Shown: positions 28,341-59,290, numbered from the stretch's first letter. The stretch: 64,000 nt of DNA from Candidatus Eiseniibacteriota bacterium (GCA_963724515.1 CAVRUU010000003.1:386724-450723), one strand, 5' to 3'. Notes: generated from the sequence alone by a model not told the origin. Translations and numbers: made by a program.

Positions 28341-28679
28341 TCAGTACTTCGGGACCTCGGGGTCGATGACCTCGGACCAGAGGTCGATGCCGCCGGAGAG
28401 GCTGCGCACCTTTCGGAATCCCAGGTCCCAGAGGATGAGGCAGCCGTCCACGCTACGGTCGCCGATGTGGCAGTAGATGACGGTCCAGTGTTCCTGCTCC
28501 AGCTCCGATTCGGCGCGGTCGCGGAGCTGCGAGAGCGGGATGTGGATCGCGCCCTCGATGTGCGCCTTCTCCCACTCCCAGTCCTCGCGGACGTCCACCA
28601 TCACGACCTCTTCCCCCGAATCCATCATCTCGTTCACGATCTCCGGGGAGATCTCGAACTCCTGGAAGTGATCCCTCAC
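28341..28679 (-). CDS. Single-domain rhodanese-like sulfurtransferase
   Basis: 112 aa. Active-site loop CHIGDRS. No signal peptide. The GTG start overlaps the stop of the hand-found ccmD (GTGA). Confidence 0.85.
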   Translation of the reverse strand: MRDHFQEFEISPEIVNEMMDSGEEVVMVDVREDWEWEKAHIEGAIHIPLSQLRDRAESELEQEHWTVIYCHIGDRSVDGCLILWDLGFRKVRSLSGGIDLWSEVIDPEVPKY

Positions 28680-28792
28680 GGGCGCGTCTCCGTCTTGTGC
28701 TGCGCGAGCCGCGCGGCGCGAGCCCGAAGGGAGAGCAGGTAGAGGATCCAGATCACGGCCGCCAGGATGTAAGCAGCCACCGCGTAGGTCAT
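28676..28792 (-). CDS. ccmD: Heme exporter protein CcmD-like small membrane protein (38 aa)
   Basis: Below the track length cut-off and found by hand: MTYAVAAYILAAVIWILYLLSLRARAARLAQHKTETRP. One TM helix followed by a basic tail. The ATG overlaps the ccmC stop (ATGA), and the stop overlaps the rhodanese GTG. Confidence 0.65.
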   Translation of the reverse strand: MTYAVAAYILAAVIWILYLLSLRARAARLAQHKTETRP

Positions 28793-29490
28793 CGCGGTGC
28801 TCCCGCGCGATCCACCGCGCCGCCTCGGTCAGCCGACTCCGCCGCGTTTCGCAGCGCCTCGAGCCTCAGCCGCTCCTGAAACACGGCCACGAAGAAAACC
28901 AGCCACGCGACCATCGATAGGAGCAGCGTCTGGCGCATCTCGCCGGTCATCGTGACGGAGCGGGGATGGAGCGAGCCGCGCCACCACTCGACCGATTTCC
29001 ACACGATGGGGAGATTCACGAAGAGGATGATCCCGAGCACCGCGGAGATCGTCCGCTTCGAGCCCTCCCCCACCGACGCCCGCACGACGTGGTACCCGCC
29101 GTAGAGGATCCAGAGAATGAGAAAGGTCGTGAGCCTGGGCTCCCACGTCCACCAAGTGTTCCAGGCAGAGCGCGCCCACAGGGGGCCTGTCACGAGCACG
29201 ATCGTGGCGAACACCATCCCGACCTCGCAGGCCGAGGCCGCGACCGCGTCCCAGACCCAGGAGCGCGTGGCGAGGTAGGCGATGCCGGCCGCGAACGTGA
29301 GGCCGAACGCGATGAGCGTGACGATGGCGCTCGGGACGTGGATGTACACGATCTTCTGCACGATCCCCATCTGCGCCTCCACGGGGGCCTTCGCCACGAC
29401 CGCCCACAGGGAGTGCGCCACCAGATAGACCGCCACGGCCCAGAGAATCACCCGGGCCTTCTTCCACCAAGCCGGTAACGCCGACGTCAT
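28789..29490 (-). CDS. ccmC: Heme exporter protein CcmC
   Basis: Track ORF 28789..29820, trimmed to Met 111 (MTSALPAWWKK...). WWD-type motif WNTWWTWEPRLT. ATGA overlap with the ccmB stop. Confidence 0.9.
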   Translation of the reverse strand: MTSALPAWWKKARVILWAVAVYLVAHSLWAVVAKAPVEAQMGIVQKIVYIHVPSAIVTLIAFGLTFAAGIAYLATRSWVWDAVAASACEVGMVFATIVLVTGPLWARSAWNTWWTWEPRLTTFLILWILYGGYHVVRASVGEGSKRTISAVLGIILFVNLPIVWKSVEWWRGSLHPRSVTMTGEMRQTLLLSMVAWLVFFVAVFQERLRLEALRNAAESADRGGAVDRAGAPR

Positions 29491-30158
29491 TCTCCAGCCT
29501 CCTGAATCGCCTCGTAGAGCCACGCCGCCAGCGCCACTCCCACGACATCCACCACGATCATGATCTTCACCCAATCCCGGACCGCGTCGATCGAGCCGTC
29601 CGCCCAGAGCGAGCGGGTCAATTTGACGGCGCCGATCCAGAGTGGAATCAATGTGGGAAAAAGCAGGATCGAGAGCAGAAGCTCGCGGGCCTTGAGTCCC
29701 CGCGCGAGCGCGGCGAACAGCGTGCCCCACGCAGCATACCCGATGAGGGCCAGTGCGGCAACGCCGGCCACCTGGGGCAGCACGCGGAGGTTCCCCACGT
29801 CGAAGAAGACCGCCGCACACGGGAGGAGGAGCGCGAAGAGCGCCGCCATCAGGAGAAAGTTGGCCGCCGCCTTCCCGGAATACACGGAGAAAGGATCCGC
29901 GCCGGTCAGCCGGAGCGCCTCCCCTCCTCCCGATTCGGTCTCGAGGTCGAGGGCGCGCGTGAGGCCCAGCATCCCCGCGAAGAAGAGCGCCGCCCAGAGC
30001 GTGGCGCTCGCCTCGCGCGCCGGATCGCGGAACATGGGCCCGAACGCGACGCTCAGGATCAGGACGAGCGAGAGGCTGAAGAGCGCGAGCGTGGCCAGGA
30101 AGCGCGCGTCGCGGGCGTGGAGTCTTAGATCCTTGGCGAAGACGCTCAGGGCGGTCAT
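29487..30158 (-). CDS. ccmB: Heme exporter protein CcmB
   Basis: Track ORF 29487..30194, trimmed to Met 13 (MTALSVFAKDLRLH...). Polytopic membrane protein. ATGA overlap with the ccmA stop. Confidence 0.85.
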   Translation of the reverse strand: MTALSVFAKDLRLHARDARFLATLALFSLSLVLILSVAFGPMFRDPAREASATLWAALFFAGMLGLTRALDLETESGGGEALRLTGADPFSVYSGKAAANFLLMAALFALLLPCAAVFFDVGNLRVLPQVAGVAALALIGYAAWGTLFAALARGLKARELLLSILLFPTLIPLWIGAVKLTRSLWADGSIDAVRDWVKIMIVVDVVGVALAAWLYEAIQEAGE

Positions 30159-30796
30159 GGGAGCGCCTCGATCCGGCCGTCGCGGATCACGCACTCGCGC
30201 GTGATTCCCGGCACGAGCCGCTCCCGGTCGTGCGAGACGAGGAGCGCGCCCGTGCCTCGCCCGCGCGCTTCCGCCAGGAGCGAGTTCAGCGTGGCGGTCC
30301 CTTCCTCGTCGAGCCCCGCGTAGGGCTCGTCGAGGATGAGAAAGCGCGGCTCGGGAAGGAGCGCCCGGCCCAGCACGACGCGCTGGAGCATCCCGCGCGA
30401 GAACCGCTCCACGGGAGTTTTCGCGAATCCCTCGAGCCCGAAGCGCGCGAGCAGGCGCTCCGCGCGCCGGCGAGCGTCGGAAACGCCGGCGAGCCTGCCG
30501 AAGAACTCCAGATTCTCCAGGGGCGTCAAGCCGAGGTAGAGGAGCGGGCGGTGGGTCGTGAATCCGATCGATCTGCGGGCTGGGCCGAGCTTGTTCCTGA
30601 CGGCGTCGCCGTCGAGCGTCACCGTGCCCGAGTCGGCGGCCAGCGCGGTGGCGAGGATCCTCGCGAACGTGGTCTTACCGGAGCCGTTGGTACCCCGAAG
30701 CAGGACGATCTCCCCGGGATGGAGCTCGAGTGAGGCCTTGCGGAGGACGACGCGGCGCTCGAAACGTTTCCCGATGTCGCGCGCGGCGAGCGTCAC
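30155..30796 (-). CDS. ccmA: Heme exporter ATP-binding protein CcmA
   Basis: 213 aa. Walker A GTNGSGKTT, Walker B LLILDEP, and operon context. Confidence 0.88.
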   Translation of the reverse strand: MTLAARDIGKRFERRVVLRKASLELHPGEIVLLRGTNGSGKTTFARILATALAADSGTVTLDGDAVRNKLGPARRSIGFTTHRPLLYLGLTPLENLEFFGRLAGVSDARRRAERLLARFGLEGFAKTPVERFSRGMLQRVVLGRALLPEPRFLILDEPYAGLDEEGTATLNSLLAEARGRGTGALLVSHDRERLVPGITRECVIRDGRIEALP

Positions 30797-30804
30797 CGCC
30801 GGCG

Positions 30805-32028
30805 TCAGCGAACTCGGCTCGCCGGTTCCTCGGCGAGCAGTGCCTGGAGCCGCCGCTTGAGATTCTGACGTATCAGCGCATGCGTCTCGCGGGTGTATTC
30901 ACCTCGCTCGAGCCCCTCGTCGAGCGCCGCGATCAGATGAAGATAGGCTTTGCGGAAATCCCCGTCGCTCGTGGGGCCGCTTGGCGGGTGTGCGAGCGGC
31001 AGCGTGCCCGCCGGCGCCGATTTGCGCGGTGCGGGCTCAGCCGCGGGCGCAACCCTGCGGGCGCGGGCCGCGTCGCGCACGCGCCGGCCGCCTCGAGCGG
31101 CGAACCAGAGCGCGGCGGTGATCGCGAACGGCGCGATCAGCCAAGGATAGATTTTCGGATTCGACCAGAAACCGGCGCCACCGATCCGGATCGCGATCTC
31201 CTGGCCGACACCGAGGGAGGCGCCGCTGTAGACGGCGTATTGTTTCCCGCCCTGGTCCCGCGTGCCGCCGAACTCGAGCCCCGTCGACTCGATCCGGAGC
31301 TTCGGGTCATCCAGGAGCACCACGAAGGATGCCGTCGGAAAATAGAGCCGGTGGCTCAGATCGACGCGCCCGGAGAGCGGGATCCGGTACGTGAAGCTGA
31401 ACGGACGGACACCCGGGGGAATGGGACGATCGCTCGAAAGCTCCCGCCCTCTCACGCGCGTGGTCTGCGCGTCGCCCCCCATCCCTGGCTTGAAGTCGTC
31501 GATCGAGGCGGGGAGCCCGACCCGCACGCCGGCGTTCTCCGCATGGTCCGGGCCGGTGCCCAGGTAGGCCGTGTGCGCCCTGTTCTCGAAGATCAGGATC
31601 TCGGTGATGTGGAACGCATCCGGCTTCCGCTCGATGATGATGTGGTGGTTTTTCACCTGCACGGCCGAGATGTCGCGGCCGACGTCGTAGACGGTGAAGC
31701 CGTGGGTCACGGTCGGGGCCTGGTCTCCGGAGAACGGCCCCTCGGTGTAGAACGCGTCTTCGTATTCGGTCGAGACGTAGTACTGAAGCGAAGGATCGCT
31801 CGTCATTCCCGTGAATTCGTACTCGCCGCGATCGTTGGTCACCGCGGACGACCCCTTGATCTCTTCCTCGCCGCGGACCAGGTGGAGCTGCACCGTCTGG
31901 CCCGCGACCGGCTTCCGCTCCTCCCCCTTCACGACGGAGCCGCGGATCGTGATCGCCGACGCGTCGCGCGCGGCGCCCGCCGCCACGAGCACGAGCGCCC
32001 CCACAATCGCCATTCGGGCGGCCCTCAT
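30805..32028 (-). CDS. Hypothetical secreted/membrane-anchored protein embedded in the ccm operon (carboxypeptidase-regulatory-like Ig domain, unknown domain, TM helix, cytoplasmic helical tail)
   Basis: Track ORF 30805..32325, trimmed to Met 100 (MRAARMAIVGALVLVAAGAARDASA). ITIRGSVVKGEERKPVAGQTVQLHLV...NDRGEYEF resembles the CarboxypepD_reg fold. TM helix IYPWLIAPFAITAALWFAA. ATGA overlap with the upstream stop. Confidence 0.6.
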   Translation of the reverse strand: MRAARMAIVGALVLVAAGAARDASAITIRGSVVKGEERKPVAGQTVQLHLVRGEEEIKGSSAVTNDRGEYEFTGMTSDPSLQYYVSTEYEDAFYTEGPFSGDQAPTVTHGFTVYDVGRDISAVQVKNHHIIIERKPDAFHITEILIFENRAHTAYLGTGPDHAENAGVRVGLPASIDDFKPGMGGDAQTTRVRGRELSSDRPIPPGVRPFSFTYRIPLSGRVDLSHRLYFPTASFVVLLDDPKLRIESTGLEFGGTRDQGGKQYAVYSGASLGVGQEIAIRIGGAGFWSNPKIYPWLIAPFAITAALWFAARGGRRVRDAARARRVAPAAEPAPRKSAPAGTLPLAHPPSGPTSDGDFRKAYLHLIAALDEGLERGEYTRETHALIRQNLKRRLQALLAEEPASRVR

Positions 32029-32426
32029 GGTTTGAACGCCCCCGAGTCCCTCCGGCGCGCGCGTTTGTAGTCTTCGATCATGCGCTCGAGGGAATCCCCG
32101 CCTTCGATTACGGCCGGACGTGGCCCGCGCCCCTTCTCGAGCGCTTCCTCCTCGCGCAGGACTTGCAAGACCTCGTTCATGGCCTCGGTCCGCATGCGCC
32201 CGTGGTCCTCCGCCGAGATCTTTCCCGAGTCGCGGTCGAAATCCAGCTCCACGATGCCGGAATAGAGCCGCGCCTTGCGCTCGCCGATCGACCGCCGTTT
32301 CGCCTCGTCGCTGGACTCCGACCACGCGCGCTCGCCGCGCCGCAGCACGATCGGGGAAACCACGAACCAGACGACCCCCCCGACGAGGAGGATCTGGGCG
32401 GCCAGGACGAGCGCGCCTTCGCTCAT
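32025..32426 (-). CDS. CcmI-like N-terminal module (one TM helix plus cytoplasmic helical region), no TPR domain
   Basis: 133 aa. TM helix LVLAAQILLVGGVVWFVVSPIVL, then LYSGIVELDFDRDSGKISAEDHGRMRTEAMNEVLQVL, which resembles the CcmI N-terminal segment. ATGA overlaps on both sides. Confidence 0.5.
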   Translation of the reverse strand: MSEGALVLAAQILLVGGVVWFVVSPIVLRRGERAWSESSDEAKRRSIGERKARLYSGIVELDFDRDSGKISAEDHGRMRTEAMNEVLQVLREEEALEKGRGPRPAVIEGGDSLERMIEDYKRARRRDSGAFKP

Positions 32427-32935
32427 CGCTTCATCTGCCGAAGCTCAGCCTCGGCCCGCGCGCGGAGCGCATCCAGCTCGTCTTCCAGCTGCCTGCCGGA
32501 CGGGAACGGGACTGTTCCGCGGCTCCCCGCTCCGGCGGTGACGAGGTCGCCCCGGCGCCTCACCCATCGGCGGAGGACCAGGAACGCGATCGCGAAACCG
32601 AGGAGGGTGGCCGCGAACGGCGCGACCCACACGATGAGATTGAATCCCTCCGCCTTCGGCGCCCCGCGGATGACCTCGCCGTACTGGGACACGAGCGCGC
32701 CCACGATCTGGTTCTTGCTCTTCCCCTGCTTGATTCCGTTCTCGACGGTGGCCTGCATGGACTTACCCGTCTCGCACGTGCACCCGCTCAGCACCTCCCC
32801 GCAGCTGCAGGGGCAGATGAGCTGGCTCGTGATGGCGTGCGCGGGGTCGCGCGGCTTCGCGGTGGAAGTCGCGGGCCAGGCGCCGAGCGTGAGGAAGAGG
32901 GAGATCGCGAACGCGGAAGCGGGAATCCGACTCAC
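32423..32935 (-). CDS. ccmH: CcmH/NrfF-like cytochrome c biogenesis protein with atypical cysteine motif
   Basis: C-terminal 170 aa of track ORF 32423..34822, from the in-frame GTG at 32935, which overlaps the ccmF stop (GTGA). Signal peptide, then SQLICPCSCGEVLSGCTCETG...IVGALVSQYGEVI...NLIVWVAPF. This is collinear with CcmH, but the canonical LRCxxC is replaced. Confidence 0.7.
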   Translation of the reverse strand: MSRIPASAFAISLFLTLGAWPATSTAKPRDPAHAITSQLICPCSCGEVLSGCTCETGKSMQATVENGIKQGKSKNQIVGALVSQYGEVIRGAPKAEGFNLIVWVAPFAATLLGFAIAFLVLRRWVRRRGDLVTAGAGSRGTVPFPSGRQLEDELDALRARAEAELRQMKR

Positions 32936-34893
32936 GAAGCGGACTTCTCCTCGCGGCGGAGCCTCATCTTGTCGCTGAGGGCGATGAGCGTCCCGAACAC
33001 CATGACGAGACCGCCCCCCCAGACGAGGCTCACGAGCGGGTTGATGTAGGCCTGGATCGAGGTCGAGCCGTCCTCGTTCACGCCGCCCAGGATCATGTAG
33101 AGATCCTCCATCGGCGTCGAGCGCAGCGCGATCTCGGTCATGGGCTGCTGGGACTTGGAGTAGAACGCCTTCGAGGGCCGCTCCGTGCCCATGAATTTCG
33201 AGCCCCGCTTGACGTCCAGAATCGCCGTCGTATGCATGGCATTCTGCTTCTGGTTCTCGGTGACCCCGCGAAGCGTCAGCGTGTAGGGTCCGATGTGGAG
33301 CGCTTCGCCGTTCTTGAGCGGCCCGTGGGCCTCCTTCTGGAACACCGAGGATCCCAGCACACCCACGAAGAGGAGCACCATGCCCGCGTGGACGATGTAC
33401 CCGCCGTAGCGGCGCTTGTTCTTCTGCACGAGGTGCACTACCTGGCCCGGGAGCGCCGACGTCTCCGAGGCCCTCCGCGCCTGAATCCCGCGCGCGAACT
33501 CCATGACGATCGTGGTGGTGACGAACGCCGCGCCGAAGATGCACACGATGGTGTAGATCCCCGTTCCGCCGAAGGGGAGCCCGATCAACACCGCCAGAAC
33601 CCCCATGAACGCGGGCAGGATGAAGTTCCGCTTCAGCACCGAGGCCGTGGCGCGCTTCCAGGAGAGCACGGGACCCGCGCCGGTCAAGAGCAGCAGGGTG
33701 AGCGCGATCGGAACGTTCACGCGGTTGAAGAAGGGCGCCGAGACCGAGATCTTCGTTCCGGTCACCGCCTCGCTCACCACCGGGAACGTGGTTCCCAGGA
33801 AGGTGGCGAACGTGAGGGCGATGAAGAGCACGTTGTTGAAGAGGAACGACCCCTCGCGCGAGACGATGGCCTCGATCCGGTTCTCGCTCTCGAGGAGCGC
33901 CTTCCGGTAGAGGATGAGCGCGGTGGCGGCCGTGGCGGTTATGAGGATGAACGCGAGGAACCAGGGACCGATGTCCGATTCGGCGAAGGAGTGCACGGAT
34001 GTGAGCACCCCCGAGCGCGTGAGGAACGTGCCGAACATGCTCAGCAAGAACGTGAGCGAGATGAGGGTGATGTTCCAGGTCTTGAGCATTCCCATGCGCT
34101 GCTCGATCATCACCGAGTGCAAGAACCCGGTTCCCACGAGCCAGGGCATGAGCGAGGCGTTCTCGACCGGGTCCCACCCCCAGTACCCGCCCCAACCCAG
34201 CTCCACATAGGCCCAGCGCGCGCCGAGCAGAACCCCGACCCCGAGAAATCCCCAGCAGAAGAGCGTCCAGCGGCGCACCTCCTCGATCCACCTCGTGCCC
34301 GACCGGTTCAGGAGCAGCACCGCCATGGCGAAACCGAAGGGGATGATGAACCCGACGTACCCCGTGTAGAGGATCGGCGGGTGGATCATCATGCCGGGAT
34401 CTTGCAGCAGCGGATTCAATCCCATGCCGTCGGGCGGCGGCGTCGCGAGAATCCGGAACGGGGAGCACACAAAGGTCAGGAGCCCCGTGAAGAAGATCAT
34501 CACCCCGGCGACCACCATCGCGACCGCGTCGTAGAAGGGATCGAGCCGTTTCCGGTACGCGAAGAGGAAGGCCGCGCCGTAGGCACTCAGGATCAGGAGC
34601 CAGAGGAGGAGCGATCCCTCCTGGCCGGCCCAGAGCGAGCTGAAGGCGTAGTAGGCTGGGAGATCCTTGCTCGTGTGCTCCGCGACGTAGCGATAGCTCA
34701 TGTCGCGGGCGAGGAGTGCGCGCTCGAGGAGGATCACCGCGAGGAGTGCCAGACCGCACACCGTCCACACGGCGCGCCGGCCCGCGCGCAGCGGCCCCGA
34801 AAGCCCGGTGCGGAGGCCCCACGCGATGCTCCCGACGGCGAATATGGAGCAGGCGAACCCGAGGAGGAGCGAGAGTCTGCCGAGCTCGCTCAC
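32932..34893 (-). CDS. ccmF: Cytochrome c-type biogenesis protein CcmF (heme lyase subunit)
   Basis: 653 aa, polytopic. WWD motif WGGYWGWDPVEN. Confidence 0.93.
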   Translation of the reverse strand: MSELGRLSLLLGFACSIFAVGSIAWGLRTGLSGPLRAGRRAVWTVCGLALLAVILLERALLARDMSYRYVAEHTSKDLPAYYAFSSLWAGQEGSLLLWLLILSAYGAAFLFAYRKRLDPFYDAVAMVVAGVMIFFTGLLTFVCSPFRILATPPPDGMGLNPLLQDPGMMIHPPILYTGYVGFIIPFGFAMAVLLLNRSGTRWIEEVRRWTLFCWGFLGVGVLLGARWAYVELGWGGYWGWDPVENASLMPWLVGTGFLHSVMIEQRMGMLKTWNITLISLTFLLSMFGTFLTRSGVLTSVHSFAESDIGPWFLAFILITATAATALILYRKALLESENRIEAIVSREGSFLFNNVLFIALTFATFLGTTFPVVSEAVTGTKISVSAPFFNRVNVPIALTLLLLTGAGPVLSWKRATASVLKRNFILPAFMGVLAVLIGLPFGGTGIYTIVCIFGAAFVTTTIVMEFARGIQARRASETSALPGQVVHLVQKNKRRYGGYIVHAGMVLLFVGVLGSSVFQKEAHGPLKNGEALHIGPYTLTLRGVTENQKQNAMHTTAILDVKRGSKFMGTERPSKAFYSKSQQPMTEIALRSTPMEDLYMILGGVNEDGSTSIQAYINPLVSLVWGGGLVMVFGTLIALSDKMRLRREEKSAS

Positions 34894-34909
34894 GAGTGAG
34901 CGCCCCCCC

Positions 34910-35320
34910 TCACGACTTGTCCTTCCCCAGCCCCTGCGTCTCGTACTTGGATGGGCACTTCGTGACCAGCTTGGTGGCGTGCAACGCCCGGTCGGCGTGC
35001 TTGTAGGAACCCTCGACCACGACCTCGCGGCCGTCGGCGAAAGCGTCGGGCATGAGCCCCTCGTAGATCACCGCGATGTTCTCCTTGCCGTCGGTCATCT
35101 TGAATTGGAGCTTCGGGACGCGCTGGTCGTAAACCACGCTCCCCGCGGCAACCACCCCGTCCAGACGGAATCCCTCCGACTTGGGAGCGCGGTCGAGACC
35201 GGCCAGCTCTGTAACGGTCATGTATTGCATGCCGGTCTGCTTTACCCCGGTGAGGATCAGGTATCCCACCGCGGCGACGACGACCAGGGACAAGAGGGCG
35301 AGTCGAATTGGGTTACCCAT
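34910..35320 (-). CDS. ccmE: Heme chaperone CcmE, Cys-variant (CxxxY instead of HxxxY)
   Basis: 136 aa. N-terminal TM anchor and OB-fold region. The C-terminal LVTKCPSKYE aligns with canonical LAKHDENY. Confidence 0.88.
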   Translation of the reverse strand: MGNPIRLALLSLVVVAAVGYLILTGVKQTGMQYMTVTELAGLDRAPKSEGFRLDGVVAAGSVVYDQRVPKLQFKMTDGKENIAVIYEGLMPDAFADGREVVVEGSYKHADRALHATKLVTKCPSKYETQGLGKDKS

Positions 35321-35422: not shown

Positions 35423-36100
35423 CTAAACGGATACCTTTCGGGGCTTCATGAGGAGGATGAGGACCATCCCGGCGAGGAACCCCCCGATGTGGGCCCACCA
35501 GGCAACGCCTCCCCGCATCGGGCTCACGGCCTCGATCGAGCCGCTCAGGATCTGGAGTATGAACCAGAACCCGAGGAGAATGATCGCGGGCAGCTCGATG
35601 ATCTGCAAGAAAAAGAATATGGGCACGAGGGTGAGCACGCGCGCGCCCGGGAAGAGGACGGCATAGGCGCCGAGGACGCCCGCGATCGCGCCGCTCGCGC
35701 CGAGCACGGGCAGGGTCGACCCGGGCTGGATCACGAAGTGCGTGAGCGCCGCGCCGAAACCGCAGAGAAAGTAGAAGAGGATGTATCGGATCGGGCCCAG
35801 CGTGTCCTCCACGTTGTCGCCGAAGATCCAGAGGAACCACATGTTCGAGATCAGGTGGAGCCACCCGCCGTGGAGGAACATCGACGTGAAAAAGGGAGCC
35901 ACCGTGTCGGAGAGGTTCACCGTGCCGTAGCGGAAGCTTCCGGTGACCTCGGCCGGAATCAGGGCGTAGCGCTTCAGGAACGAGGCCGTCGCGGGCCCGA
36001 GCTGGACTTCGTAGATGAAGACGAAGACGTTGACCAGAATCAGCGCGAGCGTGACGAACGGGAAACTGCCCGATGGATTTCGATCGCGAAGCGGAAACAT
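35423..36100 (-). CDS. Rhomboid family intramembrane serine protease
   Basis: 225 aa, 6 TM. Contains HLISNMWFLWIFG, catalytic GASGAIAG and AHIGGFLAG. Confidence 0.9.
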   Translation of the reverse strand: MFPLRDRNPSGSFPFVTLALILVNVFVFIYEVQLGPATASFLKRYALIPAEVTGSFRYGTVNLSDTVAPFFTSMFLHGGWLHLISNMWFLWIFGDNVEDTLGPIRYILFYFLCGFGAALTHFVIQPGSTLPVLGASGAIAGVLGAYAVLFPGARVLTLVPIFFFLQIIELPAIILLGFWFILQILSGSIEAVSPMRGGVAWWAHIGGFLAGMVLILLMKPRKVSV

Positions 36101-56843: not shown

Positions 56844-58316
56844 TTACCCGCGGGCTCGGGAGATTCGCCTTGAATTCAACCCGGCCGGGCGATCGGGGCC
56901 CCGCCCCACTTGCAAAATGCGAAGCAGGTTGGTCCCGCCGGCCCGCGTCGTCGTCCCCGCGACCGCGACGACCCACTCCCCTCTCCGGATCATCTTCTTT
57001 TCAAGCAGGAGGCGGATTCCCAGATCCACCATCCTGTCGGCCGTCCGCCAGTGGGGCACCTGGACCGCGGTGACCCCCCACGCCAGCGTGAGCCGGCGGC
57101 ATGTGGACTCGAGCGGCGTCAGCGCGAAGATCCGGGCCGCCGGGCGCGCCTTGCTGGCGAGACGGGCCGAGTAGCCGGTATGGGTGAAGACCGCGAGCGC
57201 CTTGGCGCGCAGCTCGTACGCCGCCTGATACGCGGTGTGAGCCAGCGCGTGGGTCGGCGACGAGAGCGCGCTTGTGTAATCGGTCCCCCGGCGTCGTAGC
57301 AAGGGGATCGTAACCTCTTCCGCCTCCGAGGCGATCCGCCCCATGGTCCGGACCGCCCGGTCGGGATATCTCCCGACCGCGGTCTCGGCGCTCAGCATGA
57401 GCGCGTCCGTCCCGTCGAAGATCGCGTTCGCCACGTCCGAAGCCTCCGCCCGCGTCGGGCGCGGCGAGGTCACCATGGATTCGAGCATCTGGGTGGCCGT
57501 GATGACCAGCACCTCGCGCGCGTTCGCGCGCTGGATGATCCGCTTCTGCAAGATGGGCACCCGCTCGGGGGGATACTCCACTCCGAGATCTCCCCGGGCC
57601 ACCATGACGCCGTCCGCTTCGCCGAGGATCGATTCCAGATTCTCGATCGCCTCCCGCCGCTCGATCTTCGCGATCACCATGGGCGGGTGCTTCGCGCCTC
57701 TCAGGAGGCGCTTCAGTTTCAAGATGTCTTCCGCGCTCCGCACGAAGGAAAGAGCGACGAAATCGATCCCCATCTTGAGCCCGAACGCGAGATCGCCTCG
57801 ATCCTTCGCGGTGAGGGAATCGGCGCTCAGCCGTACCCCGGGGAAGTTGAGCCCCTTGTGGTCGCCGAGCTTCCCGCCGACCACCACCCGGCAGCGGAGC
57901 CCTCGCCGCTCCTTCCTGATGACCCGGAGCTCGATCTTGCCGTCGTCGAGGAGCACCCTGTCTCCGACCTTCACGTCCCGCATGAGCCCGGAGTAGACCG
58001 CCGGGATGAGAGCCGCCGTGCCCTTCACGCGTCGGTTCGTGACCAGGGTCTCGGACCCTTGTCGCAGGTATACGTCCCCGCCCTGGAACTCGCCGACGCG
58101 GAGCTTGGGCCCCTGGAGATCGAGGAGAAGGCCCACCGACCGCCCGACGTGGGAGGCCGCGGCGTGGATGCGGCGGATGGCGCGGGCGTGCGAAGACCGG
58201 CTACCGTGGGAGAAATTGAGGCGCGCGACGTCCATCCCGGCGCGCATCATGCGTACGAGGACGACTTCCTCGACGCAGCTCGGGCCGACCGTCGCGATGA
58301 TCTTGGTGCGGCGCAC
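56844..58316 (-). CDS. pyk: Pyruvate kinase
   Basis: 490 aa. MRRTKIIATVGPS...ARLNFSHGS and MVARGDLGVE. Confidence 0.93.
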   Translation of the reverse strand: MRRTKIIATVGPSCVEEVVLVRMMRAGMDVARLNFSHGSRSSHARAIRRIHAAASHVGRSVGLLLDLQGPKLRVGEFQGGDVYLRQGSETLVTNRRVKGTAALIPAVYSGLMRDVKVGDRVLLDDGKIELRVIRKERRGLRCRVVVGGKLGDHKGLNFPGVRLSADSLTAKDRGDLAFGLKMGIDFVALSFVRSAEDILKLKRLLRGAKHPPMVIAKIERREAIENLESILGEADGVMVARGDLGVEYPPERVPILQKRIIQRANAREVLVITATQMLESMVTSPRPTRAEASDVANAIFDGTDALMLSAETAVGRYPDRAVRTMGRIASEAEEVTIPLLRRRGTDYTSALSSPTHALAHTAYQAAYELRAKALAVFTHTGYSARLASKARPAARIFALTPLESTCRRLTLAWGVTAVQVPHWRTADRMVDLGIRLLLEKKMIRRGEWVVAVAGTTTRAGGTNLLRILQVGRGPDRPAGLNSRRISRARG

Positions 58317-59290
58317 TAGAGGGCCAGTGTAGCCATCACCTCTTCGGCATGACCCTCCACCTTCACGCGGCGGAACACGTGCTCGACCTTGCCCTCACGA
58401 TCGATGACGAACGTCGTGCGCTCGACCCCCCAGAAGCTCCTGCCGTAGAGATTCTTCTCCTTGTAGGTCCCGTACTGGCGCGAGACGGCCGCGTCCTTGT
58501 CGGAGAGAAGCGGAAACGGGAGGTTGTACTTCTGCGCGAACCGCTCGTGGCTCAGCTCGTCGTCGAGGCTGACCCCCAGAACGATCGCGTCTTTCGACTC
58601 GATGCGCGGAAAGGAGTCACGGAATCCGCACGCTTCCATCGTGCAGCCGGGCGTGTCGTCCTTGGGATAGAAGTACAGGATGACGCGCCTGCCGCGGAAT
58701 TCGTTCAGGGTCACGCGGCGGCCGAGAGTGCTGGGGAGCGAGAATTCCGGCGCCGGCATGCCTACCGTCAGGCTCTCGCCGGGATAATCGAGGAGGTTGA
58801 TCTGGCCGCCCTTGCCGCGTCTTTTTTTCGGCATTGGCGGCGGTCCGAGGGCCGGATCGCGCGGCAGCTCGGTGGGGGGCGGACCCTCGTCCAGCTCGAG
58901 GAGCCCTTGCGCGACCCCGCGGTCAGAGGATCCTCCAGCCGAAAGCCTCGCCTTTACCCTCGAACCGGCCTTCGCGTTCATGGCCAGCCCGCTCCGGCCG
59001 GGGGCTCTCGAAATCGCGGCGCTCTTAGCACCCGATTTCGGCGCGGTCGGACGCCGCGCCTTGGTCGCGCGAACCACTCGCTTCGCCTTCGGCTTGGCCG
59101 CTCGCCTCGCCTTCGGCCTGGCCGCTCGCTTCGACGGCCTGCTGGATTTCGGCCTCGACTTGGCGCGGGATTTCGCCCGCGATTTTGGACGCGATTTCGG
59201 TCTCGACTTCCGCCTGGCTGAAGCGGCCCGACGCTTTATCTTCTTTGGTTTCCGCGACTTAGCCCGTTTGCTCGATCGCTTCCCAGCCAT
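58316..59290 (-). CDS. bcp: Bcp-type peroxiredoxin with ~150-aa highly basic (histone H1-like) N-terminal extension
   Basis: 324 aa. The C-terminal part, APEFSLPS...ILYFYPKDDTPGCTMEAC, is Bcp. The N-terminal part is Lys/Arg/Ala/Pro/Ser-rich with KSR(P/A) x5. AGGGAG lies 7 nt before the ATG at 59290. Confidence 0.75.
   Translation of the reverse strand: MAGKRSSKRAKSRKPKKIKRRAASARRKSRPKSRPKSRAKSRAKSRPKSSRPSKRAARPKARRAAKPKAKRVVRATKARRPTAPKSGAKSAAISRAPGRSGLAMNAKAGSRVKARLSAGGSSDRGVAQGLLELDEGPPPTELPRDPALGPPPMPKKRRGKGGQINLLDYPGESLTVGMPAPEFSLPSTLGRRVTLNEFRGRRVILYFYPKDDTPGCTMEACGFRDSFPRIESKDAIVLGVSLDDELSHERFAQKYNLPFPLLSDKDAAVSRQYGTYKEKNLYGRSFWGVERTTFVIDREGKVEHVFRRVKVEGHAEEVMATLAL
59155..59226. repeat. 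12-nt tandem repeats (~6 units) encoding KSR(P/A) tetrapeptides
   Basis: GATTTCGGCCTC GACTTGGCGCGG GATTTCGCCCGC GATTTTGGACGC GATTTCGGTCTC GACTTCCGCCTG seen on the plus strand. Hand-indexed. Confidence 0.7.

Follow-up and report, generated by a model that had tools for sequence, protein, structure and literature searches.

Cytochrome c maturation operon of the window

The stretch of DNA analysed here, hereafter the window, covers 64,000 nucleotides of contig 3 (CAVRUU010000003.1:386724-450723) of a 1.96-Mb metagenome-assembled genome (MAG; GCA_963724515.1) of Candidatus Eisenbacteria that is 69% complete, an affiliation also indicated by named homologues and related loci. On its minus strand, positions 28341-35320 carry an operon for System I cytochrome c maturation (ccm) with the gene order ccmE, ccmF, a gene for a CcmH-fold protein (ccmH*), a gene for a 133-aa protein resembling the N-terminal domain of CcmI, a gene for a 407-aa protein, ccmA, ccmB, ccmC, ccmD and a rhodanese gene. 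In operons of this type, a C-x-C-x-C-x6-C-x-(C/H/M) cluster replaces the CxxC motif of CcmH, two bitopic proteins stand in place of the TPR-containing CcmI, and no thioredoxin is encoded. With a probability of about 80%, the locus is considered to be a single complete operon of the System I* type, that is, with a cysteine-type CcmE, and a member of a widespread ccmE(Cys)-ccmF-ccmH*-ccmI'-ccmI''-ccmABCD design that would receive its reductant from a separately encoded pair of CcdA and a ResA/TlpA-like protein. The gene identities, motifs, fold, synteny and co-occurrence described below come directly from the data and constitute a secure identification; the chemistry is a proposal.

Genes were assigned by Pfam and NCBIfam scans, with start codons set by overlaps, and the gene order and coordinates given by an earlier first-pass annotation, made from the sequence alone, were found to be correct. 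Seven junctions are ATGA or GTGA overlaps, namely those from ccmF to ccmH*, from ccmH* to the 133-aa gene, from the 133-aa to the 407-aa gene, and then from ccmA through ccmB, ccmC and ccmD to the rhodanese gene, while gaps of 16 nt and 8 nt separate ccmE from ccmF and the 407-aa gene from ccmA, respectively. The overlapping arrangement noticed earlier from ccmF onward is therefore real, with the 8-nt gap before ccmA as its exception.

The core of the operon is conventional in composition. CcmF (653 aa; 32932..34893, minus strand), the haem lyase and haem b membrane subunit, matches CcmF_C (7.7e-65), Cytochrom_C_asm (1.1e-39) and TIGR00353 (5e-135), and its WWD region is GWGGYWGWDPVENASLMPWL. 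The ABC ATPase CcmA (30155..30796, minus strand) was identified with TIGR01189 (1.1e-36) and PF00005 (1.5e-28), and CcmB (29487..30158/30194, minus strand) with PF03379 (1.4e-26); ccmB probably begins with the ATG at 30158, where it overlaps the end of ccmA by ATGA. CcmC (233 aa; 28789..29490, minus strand; TIGR01191, 1.3e-33), whose start was likewise set by an ATGA overlap, contains the WWD-type motif WWTWEPRLTT, and both conserved His residues, in YIHVP and SLHP, can be read directly from its sequence. In this tryptophan-rich motif, a Glu stands at the position of the Asp in the WxWD of Escherichia coli CcmC. The ccmD-like open reading frame (ORF; 28676..28792, minus strand) encodes 38 aa with one transmembrane helix and a basic tail, and is bounded by ATGA and GTGA overlaps on either side. 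It was not matched by any profile in the Pfam and NCBIfam scans; counterparts with a transmembrane helix and a basic tail are found downstream of ccmC in other operons of this design.

The ccm set, CcmF included, is present in a single copy, and no CcmF/CcsA paralogue was found in the genome. The same genome contains ORFs with 17, 13, 10 and 9 CxxCH motifs, the former two being adjacent at C9:103866-106471 (minus strand; 13 and 17 motifs) and the latter two lying at C3:701027-707602. Because there is only one ccm set, the operon of the window must mature the multihaem cytochromes, and these ORFs, as judged from their haem-attachment motifs, are likely substrates of it.

CcmE with cysteine at the haem-binding position

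The ccmE gene (34910..35320, minus strand) encodes a Cys-type haem chaperone of 136 aa that matches PF03100 at 1.7e-25, with 89.7 bits against a cut-off of 24.6. The protein contains an N-terminal membrane anchor, with the hydrophobic N-terminus LALLSLVVVAAVGYLIL, and an OB domain, and its C-terminal end, LVTKCPSKYETQGLGKDKS, includes the motif K-C122-PSK-Y126. In the PDB, the best match was 2KCT, the Cys-type CcmE of Desulfovibrio vulgaris, and 1SR3, 8CE8_E and 1J6Q were also matched. HMMER aligned KCPSKY with KHDENY of Shewanella and with KCP of D. vulgaris, and MAFFT placed the Cys in the His column of an HSNEY-type CcmE from a deltaproteobacterial locus. Cys122 occupies the column of the canonical haem-binding His of the Shewanella and E. 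coli proteins (H130 in E. coli), and Tyr126 is conserved. Both alignments agree with the earlier proposal that Cys replaces the haem-binding His; the residue in that column is Cys and not His, and the motif of the protein is the CxxxY of System I* instead of the canonical HxxxY. KCPSKY was observed to be identical in all 27 Eisenbacteria loci that include ccmE. By its sequence, the window protein is a CcmE of the System I* type, for which haem binding via Cys122 is predicted. CPSKY is the commonest variant CcmE motif (Stevens et al., 2011; PMC3601427), and the equivalent Cys of an archaeal CcmE, that of M. acetivorans, is required for haem binding (PMC9084895).

CcmH-fold protein with a multi-cysteine cluster

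CcmH* (170 aa; 32423..32935, minus strand) starts at a GTGA overlap with the ccmF stop codon and matches PF03918 with 76.9 bits against a cut-off of 25. It consists of a signal peptide, a periplasmic helical domain, a transmembrane helix (~98-121) and a conserved cytoplasmic helix (147-169). In its motif region, ICPCSCGEVLSGCTC, the second Cys of CxxC is changed to Ser and four extra Cys residues are present around it (sequence stretch QLICPCSCGEVLSGCTCETG). The resulting cluster, C41-P-C43-S-C45-x6-C52-T-C54, lies in the periplasmic helical domain. An ungapped profile alignment with the CcmH proteins of E. coli and Pseudomonas aeruginosa matches Cys41 with the first Cys of LRCPxC, and Ser44 with its second Cys, so that the extra Cys residues fall at +2, +4, +11 and +13 (43, 45, 52 and 54), with 52 and 54 replacing the conserved ADSN segment. 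This alignment bears out the first-pass reading of a CcmH-like protein with CPCSC...CTC in place of the LRCxxC redox motif.

The relation to CcmH is also supported by structure prediction. The AlphaFold2 (AF2) model of CcmH*, built with a 51-row alignment, has a mean pLDDT of 83.8, and in a Foldseek search its only confident matches were the CcmH structures 2HL7 (P. aeruginosa) and 2KW0 (E. coli), the top match being 2HL7 with an rmsd of 1.9 A over 59 columns, a TM(target) score of 0.65 and a probability of 1.0. Membership of an unrelated family, which would have undone the earlier assignment, is contradicted by both the above-cut-off Pfam match and this fold. Going by sequence and model, CcmH* is a true member of the CcmH family and fold whose active site lacks CxxC.

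With canonical CcmH (2HL7, 2KW0, PF03918), the window protein shares the family, the periplasmic helical fold, the first Cys, the C-terminal transmembrane anchor and the position of its gene directly after ccmF. It differs in that LRCxxC is replaced by [LIM]xCxCxC, the second active-site Cys by Ser or Gly, and the SxADSN segment by a second Cys pair; in addition, the conserved cytoplasmic helix is longer and no ccmG lies nearby. The cluster is invariant in the Eisenbacteria loci that contain a CcmH-like ORF (L003-L036), and relatives from the same family of genomes are 54-88% identical to the window protein. The CPCSC form is specific to one family within the phylum. In another family of the same phylum (locus L141 of genome G048), a CcmH-family protein, LIAPCCWTTSVADH, was observed to have two adjacent Cys residues replacing CxxC.

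CxCxC subfamily of CcmH and its operon type

A HMMER search of 1.84 billion cluster representatives with CcmH* returned 6 matches below 1e-30, all from the Eisenbacteria clade, and 1405 below 1e-10. Most of the top 150 matches contain C-x-C-G-C...C-x-C or C-x-C-G-C...C-x-H-x2-C and not CxxC. When 299 CxCxC sequences were checked, a set chosen with a pattern that itself fixes the Cys residues at 0, +2 and +4, a Cys was found at +11 in 278, and in nearly all the others at +12 through a one-residue insertion. Position +13 was found to be C in 166, H in 70, M in 15 and G in 13 of the sequences, an interchange of C, H and M as expected of ligands at a metal or haem site. The canonical second Cys position is occupied by Gly in most of the subfamily and by Ser in the window protein. 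On this sequence evidence, CcmH* is one member of a large CxCxC-x6-C subfamily, whose named holders include Chloroflexota, Dehalococcoidales and a Syntrophothermus, and which databases label simply "CcmH".

The operon context of this subfamily is also conserved. The same operon was found in about 34 Eisenbacteria loci, and the order ccmE, ccmF, ccmH*, 133-aa homologue, 407-aa homologue, ccmA, ccmB, ccmC, usually followed by a ccmD-like ORF, recurs in 80 diverse metagenome loci. These loci were retrieved with a 12-sequence alignment of CxCGC-type CcmH, a 46-sequence alignment being too diverse, and are consequently biased to the patterns CGCTM[VI][VL]xxC and GFNLxAW. CcmE is included in 26 of the metagenome loci; it contains C[PA]S[KR]Y in 22 of them and ends in a different Cys-rich tail (CKACH) in the other 4, with no case of HxxxY. 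Together with the 27 of 27 Eisenbacteria loci that include ccmE, these 22 further loci pair Cys-CcmE with a CxCxC CcmH. Because of this recurrence, the combination, which the first-pass annotation had regarded as unusual, is the norm in a large operon family and not peculiar to the window locus.

In addition, the operon type was observed to differ in its linkage to thioredoxin genes. In a search with the ResA-like thioredoxin of one sister genome, a thioredoxin-like ORF was found near ccmH in 7 of 7 CxxC loci (six from Chloroflexota and one from a deltaproteobacterium) as against 0 of 111 CxCxC loci, which comprise 827 kb, with 55 loci of at least 6 kb and 22 with the full operon.

Several loci show further variation in these genes. 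CcmE-like OB proteins at L048:2303-2707, L052:3474-3878, L054:920-1324 and L122:8956-9360, from one metagenomic branch that is probably Chloroflexota, end in SSPLCKACHQ, a CxxCH haem-attachment motif replacing CxxxY/HxxxY, and their genes are positioned after the CcmI-N-like gene and not before ccmF. Tandem CxCxC CcmH paralogues, one with C-x-C and one with C-x-H-x2-C, are encoded per operon at L067:7573-8480 and L090:424-1331.

Two proteins probably related to the N-terminal domain of CcmI

The 133-aa protein (32025..32426, minus strand) has a single N-terminal transmembrane helix that leads into a cytoplasmic helix containing the motif VELDFDRDSGKISAEDH; the motif of its family is ELEFD..GK[LI]S.EDY. 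TIGR03142, the N-terminal domain of CcmI, is matched by 17 of the 24 members of the family, at best with 1.2e-8, the window protein itself scoring 18.1 bits (E 0.0025), below the cut-off of 29.3. Its gene follows ccmH* in nearly all loci. Family members outside Eisenbacteria (alignment A6, e.g. L059:5958-6383 and L075:8489-9076) usually end in one or two zinc-ribbon motifs, FCPQCG...FCxxCG, which fit a cytoplasmic C-terminus of the family and are missing from the window protein.

The 407-aa protein (30805..32028, minus strand), a bitopic exported protein, was characterized by an AF2 model, hhalign and synteny. The model (pLDDT 83.5) comprises a signal peptide, periplasmic tandem beta-sandwich domains (~25-283), a transmembrane helix (~291-323), a disordered linker and a cytoplasmic helical hairpin (354-399). 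By hhalign, the transmembrane helix and cytoplasmic tail are homologous to the 133-aa family (probability 97.2%, E 2.9e-11). Foldseek returned only generic beta-sandwich and transmembrane matches (Ost1/ribophorin I, aminopeptidase N domain I) with TM scores of ~0.3, and for this reason no specific function is drawn for the protein. In Eisenbacteria, Chloroflexota and many metagenome loci, its gene keeps this place behind that of the CcmI-like protein. Outside Eisenbacteria, the family (alignment A5, e.g. L057:1048-2211 and L060:4650-5813) has a conserved periplasmic GLMECC[IV] with two adjacent Cys residues; the window protein has GMGGDAQ at this position.

The Pfam scan detected no TPR domain in either protein. 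Judged by sequence comparison, the operon encodes two CcmI-N-like modules and no TPR domain. The probable likeness to CcmI/CycH, which combines the TIGR03142 domain with periplasmic TPRs, lies in the module of transmembrane and cytoplasmic helix, present in the 133-aa protein and in the tail of the 407-aa protein, and in the location of the genes after ccmH. Unlike in CcmI/CycH, the module occurs in two separate proteins, TPRs are missing, and the periplasmic part is a tandem beta-sandwich.

Source of reductant

No thioredoxin-fold CcmG (TIGR00385) is encoded in the operon or elsewhere in the window. In the search of the rest of the genome for ccmG, dsbD and ccdA that had been proposed earlier, two candidates for CcmG were rejected: the protein at C6:310703 is a cytoplasmic TrxA adjoining TrxB, and that at 58316-59290 of the window (minus strand) is a Bcp peroxiredoxin. 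The latter protein, of the Bcp type (PKDDTPGCTMEAC), is extended at its N-terminus by ~170 aa in which Lys, Arg, Ser and Pro abound and KSRPKSR units recur. A weak dsbE match lies inside a 1119-aa ORF at C3:502364 of the MAG. DsbD/CcdA had no match in the 69%-complete MAG.

Four related genomes each encode one CcdA, in all four cases within a conserved locus that contains, in this order, glnA, a ResA/TlpA/DsbE-like lipoprotein with WATWC[GP]PC, CcdA and an HD-domain protein. All 13 high-quality genomes of the window's family encode CcdA, and DsbD_TM occurs in 59 of 61 sampled genomes of the phylum. Since the neighbouring glnA also had no match in the MAG, the whole glnA/ResA-like/CcdA region was evidently not recovered in this incomplete assembly, and the absence of CcmG and CcdA from it therefore proves nothing. 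The lack of CcmG asserted in the first-pass annotation thus holds for the operon alone; a ResA/TlpA-like thioredoxin and CcdA are encoded elsewhere in the four sister genomes. By analogy with these genomes, the ccm system most likely receives its reductant in trans. The sister genomes resemble the ResA-CcdA pair of System II and the CcmG-DsbD pair of System I in encoding a periplasmic thioredoxin lipoprotein (WCxPC), here directly upstream of a short CcdA. They differ in that the pair has glnA as its neighbour and is distant from the ccm operon; a role of the pair in cytochrome maturation is presumptive.

Distribution in the phylum and relation to System I*

Among 61 sampled genomes of the phylum, CcmE was found in 56, CcmH (PF03918) in 22 and ResB in 15; all 14 genomes that belong to the window's family have CcmH. 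The counts for CcmE and CcmH indicate that CcmH-less and CcmH-containing Cys-CcmE systems both occur in the phylum.

The view that CxxxY systems lack CcmH reportedly originates from Allen 2006 and Goddard 2010, and it was also the premise of the first-pass annotation. That premise is outdated: about one third of bacteria with variant CcmE have CcmH, and its absence "is not a characteristic feature" (Stevens et al., 2011; PMC3601427). The window operon resembles System I* of Desulfovibrio desulfuricans/vulgaris and archaea (PMC3601427, PMC9084895) in having CPSKY instead of HxxxY in CcmE, in the presence of ccmABCD, ccmE and ccmF, and in the lack of ccmG in the operon. The Desulfovibrio cluster has been described as lacking CcmH, and the archaeal systems as lacking CcmD, CcmH and CcmI, whereas the window operon retains a five-Cys CcmH-fold protein, two CcmI-N-like membrane proteins and a lineage-specific rhodanese. 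The absence of CcmH, a trait of System I* in its original 2006/2010 form, is thus not shared by this locus, where a CcmH-fold gene follows ccmF. We found no description of the CxCxC cluster, of its link to the missing operon thioredoxin or of the two CcmI-N-like proteins in a searchable literature that includes few subscription-journal papers, so that a prior description may exist and the evidence of novelty is weak.

What does the cysteine cluster of CcmH* do?

By homology, CcmABCD would load haem onto CcmE, where it would be held via Cys122 and Tyr126, and CcmF together with the CcmH-fold protein would pass it to the CxxCH motifs of multihaem apocytochromes. The thiols of the apocytochromes may be reduced by the separately encoded CcdA and ResA/TlpA-like lipoprotein seen in the sister genomes. 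The 133-aa and 407-aa proteins may as a pair substitute for a TPR-containing CcmI, with the beta-sandwich domains handling the apocytochrome. The cluster of CcmH* could serve to position or protect the apocytochrome and CcmE thiols at CcmF.

A more ordinary role for CcmH* has an appreciable chance of being correct, although at less than even odds, namely that of a thiol-disulfide oxidoreductase in which Cys41 and either Cys43 or Cys45 (CPC/CxC or C-x3-C) reduce, or form mixed disulfides with, the CxxCH of the apocytochrome. CcmH* would then be re-reduced by the ResA/TlpA-like protein and CcdA in the manner of CcmG and DsbD in E. coli. The extra Cys residues would be engaged in a structural disulfide, and where the thioredoxin gene lies would simply reflect genome organisation. 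The exact alignment of the invariant first Cys with that of the canonical motif and the retention of the CcmH fold agree with such a role, as does the finding that all examined close relatives encode a ResA/TlpA/DsbE-like periplasmic thioredoxin and CcdA; CPC and CGC motifs are, moreover, redox-active in Mia40 and Erv2. However, the canonical second Cys is Ser in the window protein and Gly in most of the subfamily, and the fifth position of the cluster swaps between C, H and M, unlike disulfide partners. The complete separation in thioredoxin-gene linkage between CxCxC and CxxC loci also speaks against it.

The preferred reading is that the cluster is not a simple CcmG-dependent dithiol; a metal- or haem-liganding site is considered more likely, or else, possibly, a multi-thiol site that is self-contained. 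A bolder version, in which CxCxC-x6-C-x-(C/H/M) is a metal- or haem-liganding site that replaces CxxC chemistry and forms, with the CcmE thiol, a cysteine-based haem hand-off at CcmF without a dedicated CcmG, while the two CcmI-N-like proteins constitute a split beta-sandwich apocytochrome receptor, is speculative and, taken as a whole, somewhat unlikely.

Two other explanations fare much worse. The CcmH-like gene and ccmF might constitute an NrfEF-type lyase dedicated to a non-standard motif such as CxxCK, given that the best NCBIfam match of the CcmH-like protein is NrfF (TIGR03147, 1.6e-10) and that CcmF also matches NrfE models. This was rejected as highly improbable because the scores are far below the cut-offs (40.7 against 159.2 bits for NrfF and 425 against 927 bits for NrfE), the genome has a single CcmF/CcmC set, and the genes lie inside the core ccmE...ccmABCD operon with no adjacent nrfA. 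Least credible is a decaying relic without a role, suggested by the function of Desulfovibrio-type System I* without CcmH and by the scarcity of CcmH relative to CcmE in the phylum sample, and rejected since it is contradicted by an intact reading frame, an above-cut-off Pfam score, a confident AF2 model, 54-88% identity in relatives with an invariant cluster, presence in all 14 genomes of the family, and four Cys residues that are essentially invariant across the 299 diverse sequences.

Several points nevertheless weigh against the interpretation of the locus as a distinct System I* design. The functions given for the operon type are predictions from sequences and models, and a CxC or C-x3-C pair could be an ordinary redox dithiol that the ResA-like protein serves in trans. 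No CcmH is needed for D. desulfuricans System I* to work in E. coli (cited in PMC3601427). The co-occurrence counts are not phylogenetically independent, as the operon may be inherited as a unit, and the 7 CxxC loci come from few lineages only. Finally, Chloroflexota loci exist that combine Cys-CcmE, both CcmI-like genes, a CxxC CcmH and an in-operon thioredoxin, which means that Cys-CcmE itself does not require the CxCxC cluster. Two Chloroflexota loci, L042 and L043, have Cys-CcmE with KCPTRY, a CxxC-type CcmH (CPVC and two more Cys residues) and an in-operon thioredoxin; their 407-aa homologues (L042:11606-13492 and L043:11642-13498) carry an additional N-terminal cytochrome c domain (CANCH).

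Two questions in cytochrome c biogenesis remain open: how haem is released from a cysteine-linked CcmE, and what real role CcmH plays. On the basis of System I*, it had been argued that CcmH and CcmG can be dispensed with; here a large natural group of Cys-CcmE systems keeps CcmH, with its active site rebuilt as a conserved multi-cysteine cluster. If the liganding and hand-off proposal were true, the operon would represent a mechanistically distinct third flavour of System I in Eisenbacteria, many Chloroflexota, some Firmicutes and other uncultured lineages. With 10 genes in ~7 kb, it offers a compact, defined set for asking whether CcmH is a reductase, a metal/haem site or an adaptor. The hosts, uncultured bacteria of soil and sediment, are rich in multihaem cytochromes, which gives the question a bearing on the maturation of their extracellular electron-transfer proteins.

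Rhodanese and rhomboid genes at the ends of the operon

The last gene of the operon (28341..28679, minus strand) encodes a single-domain cytoplasmic rhodanese of 112 aa (PF00581, 7.5e-18) with the active-site loop YC70HIGDRS. A rhodanese gene follows ccmC/D in 21 of 21 Eisenbacteria loci as against none of 10 other loci with this type of operon, and this family synteny alone, not the overlap with ccmD, is counted as evidence tying it to the operon. The rhodanese is a lineage-specific last gene, specific to the window's family, and its part in the ccm system is unproven. At the other end, about 100 bp upstream of ccmE, a rhomboid-like membrane protein is encoded (35423..36100, minus strand), its family being named from the sequence and not from a hidden Markov model scan. 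A rhomboid gene precedes ccmE in 20 of 24 Eisenbacteria loci and in 0 of 21 other loci, and it is probably a neighbour specific to the window's family and not part of the ccm system.

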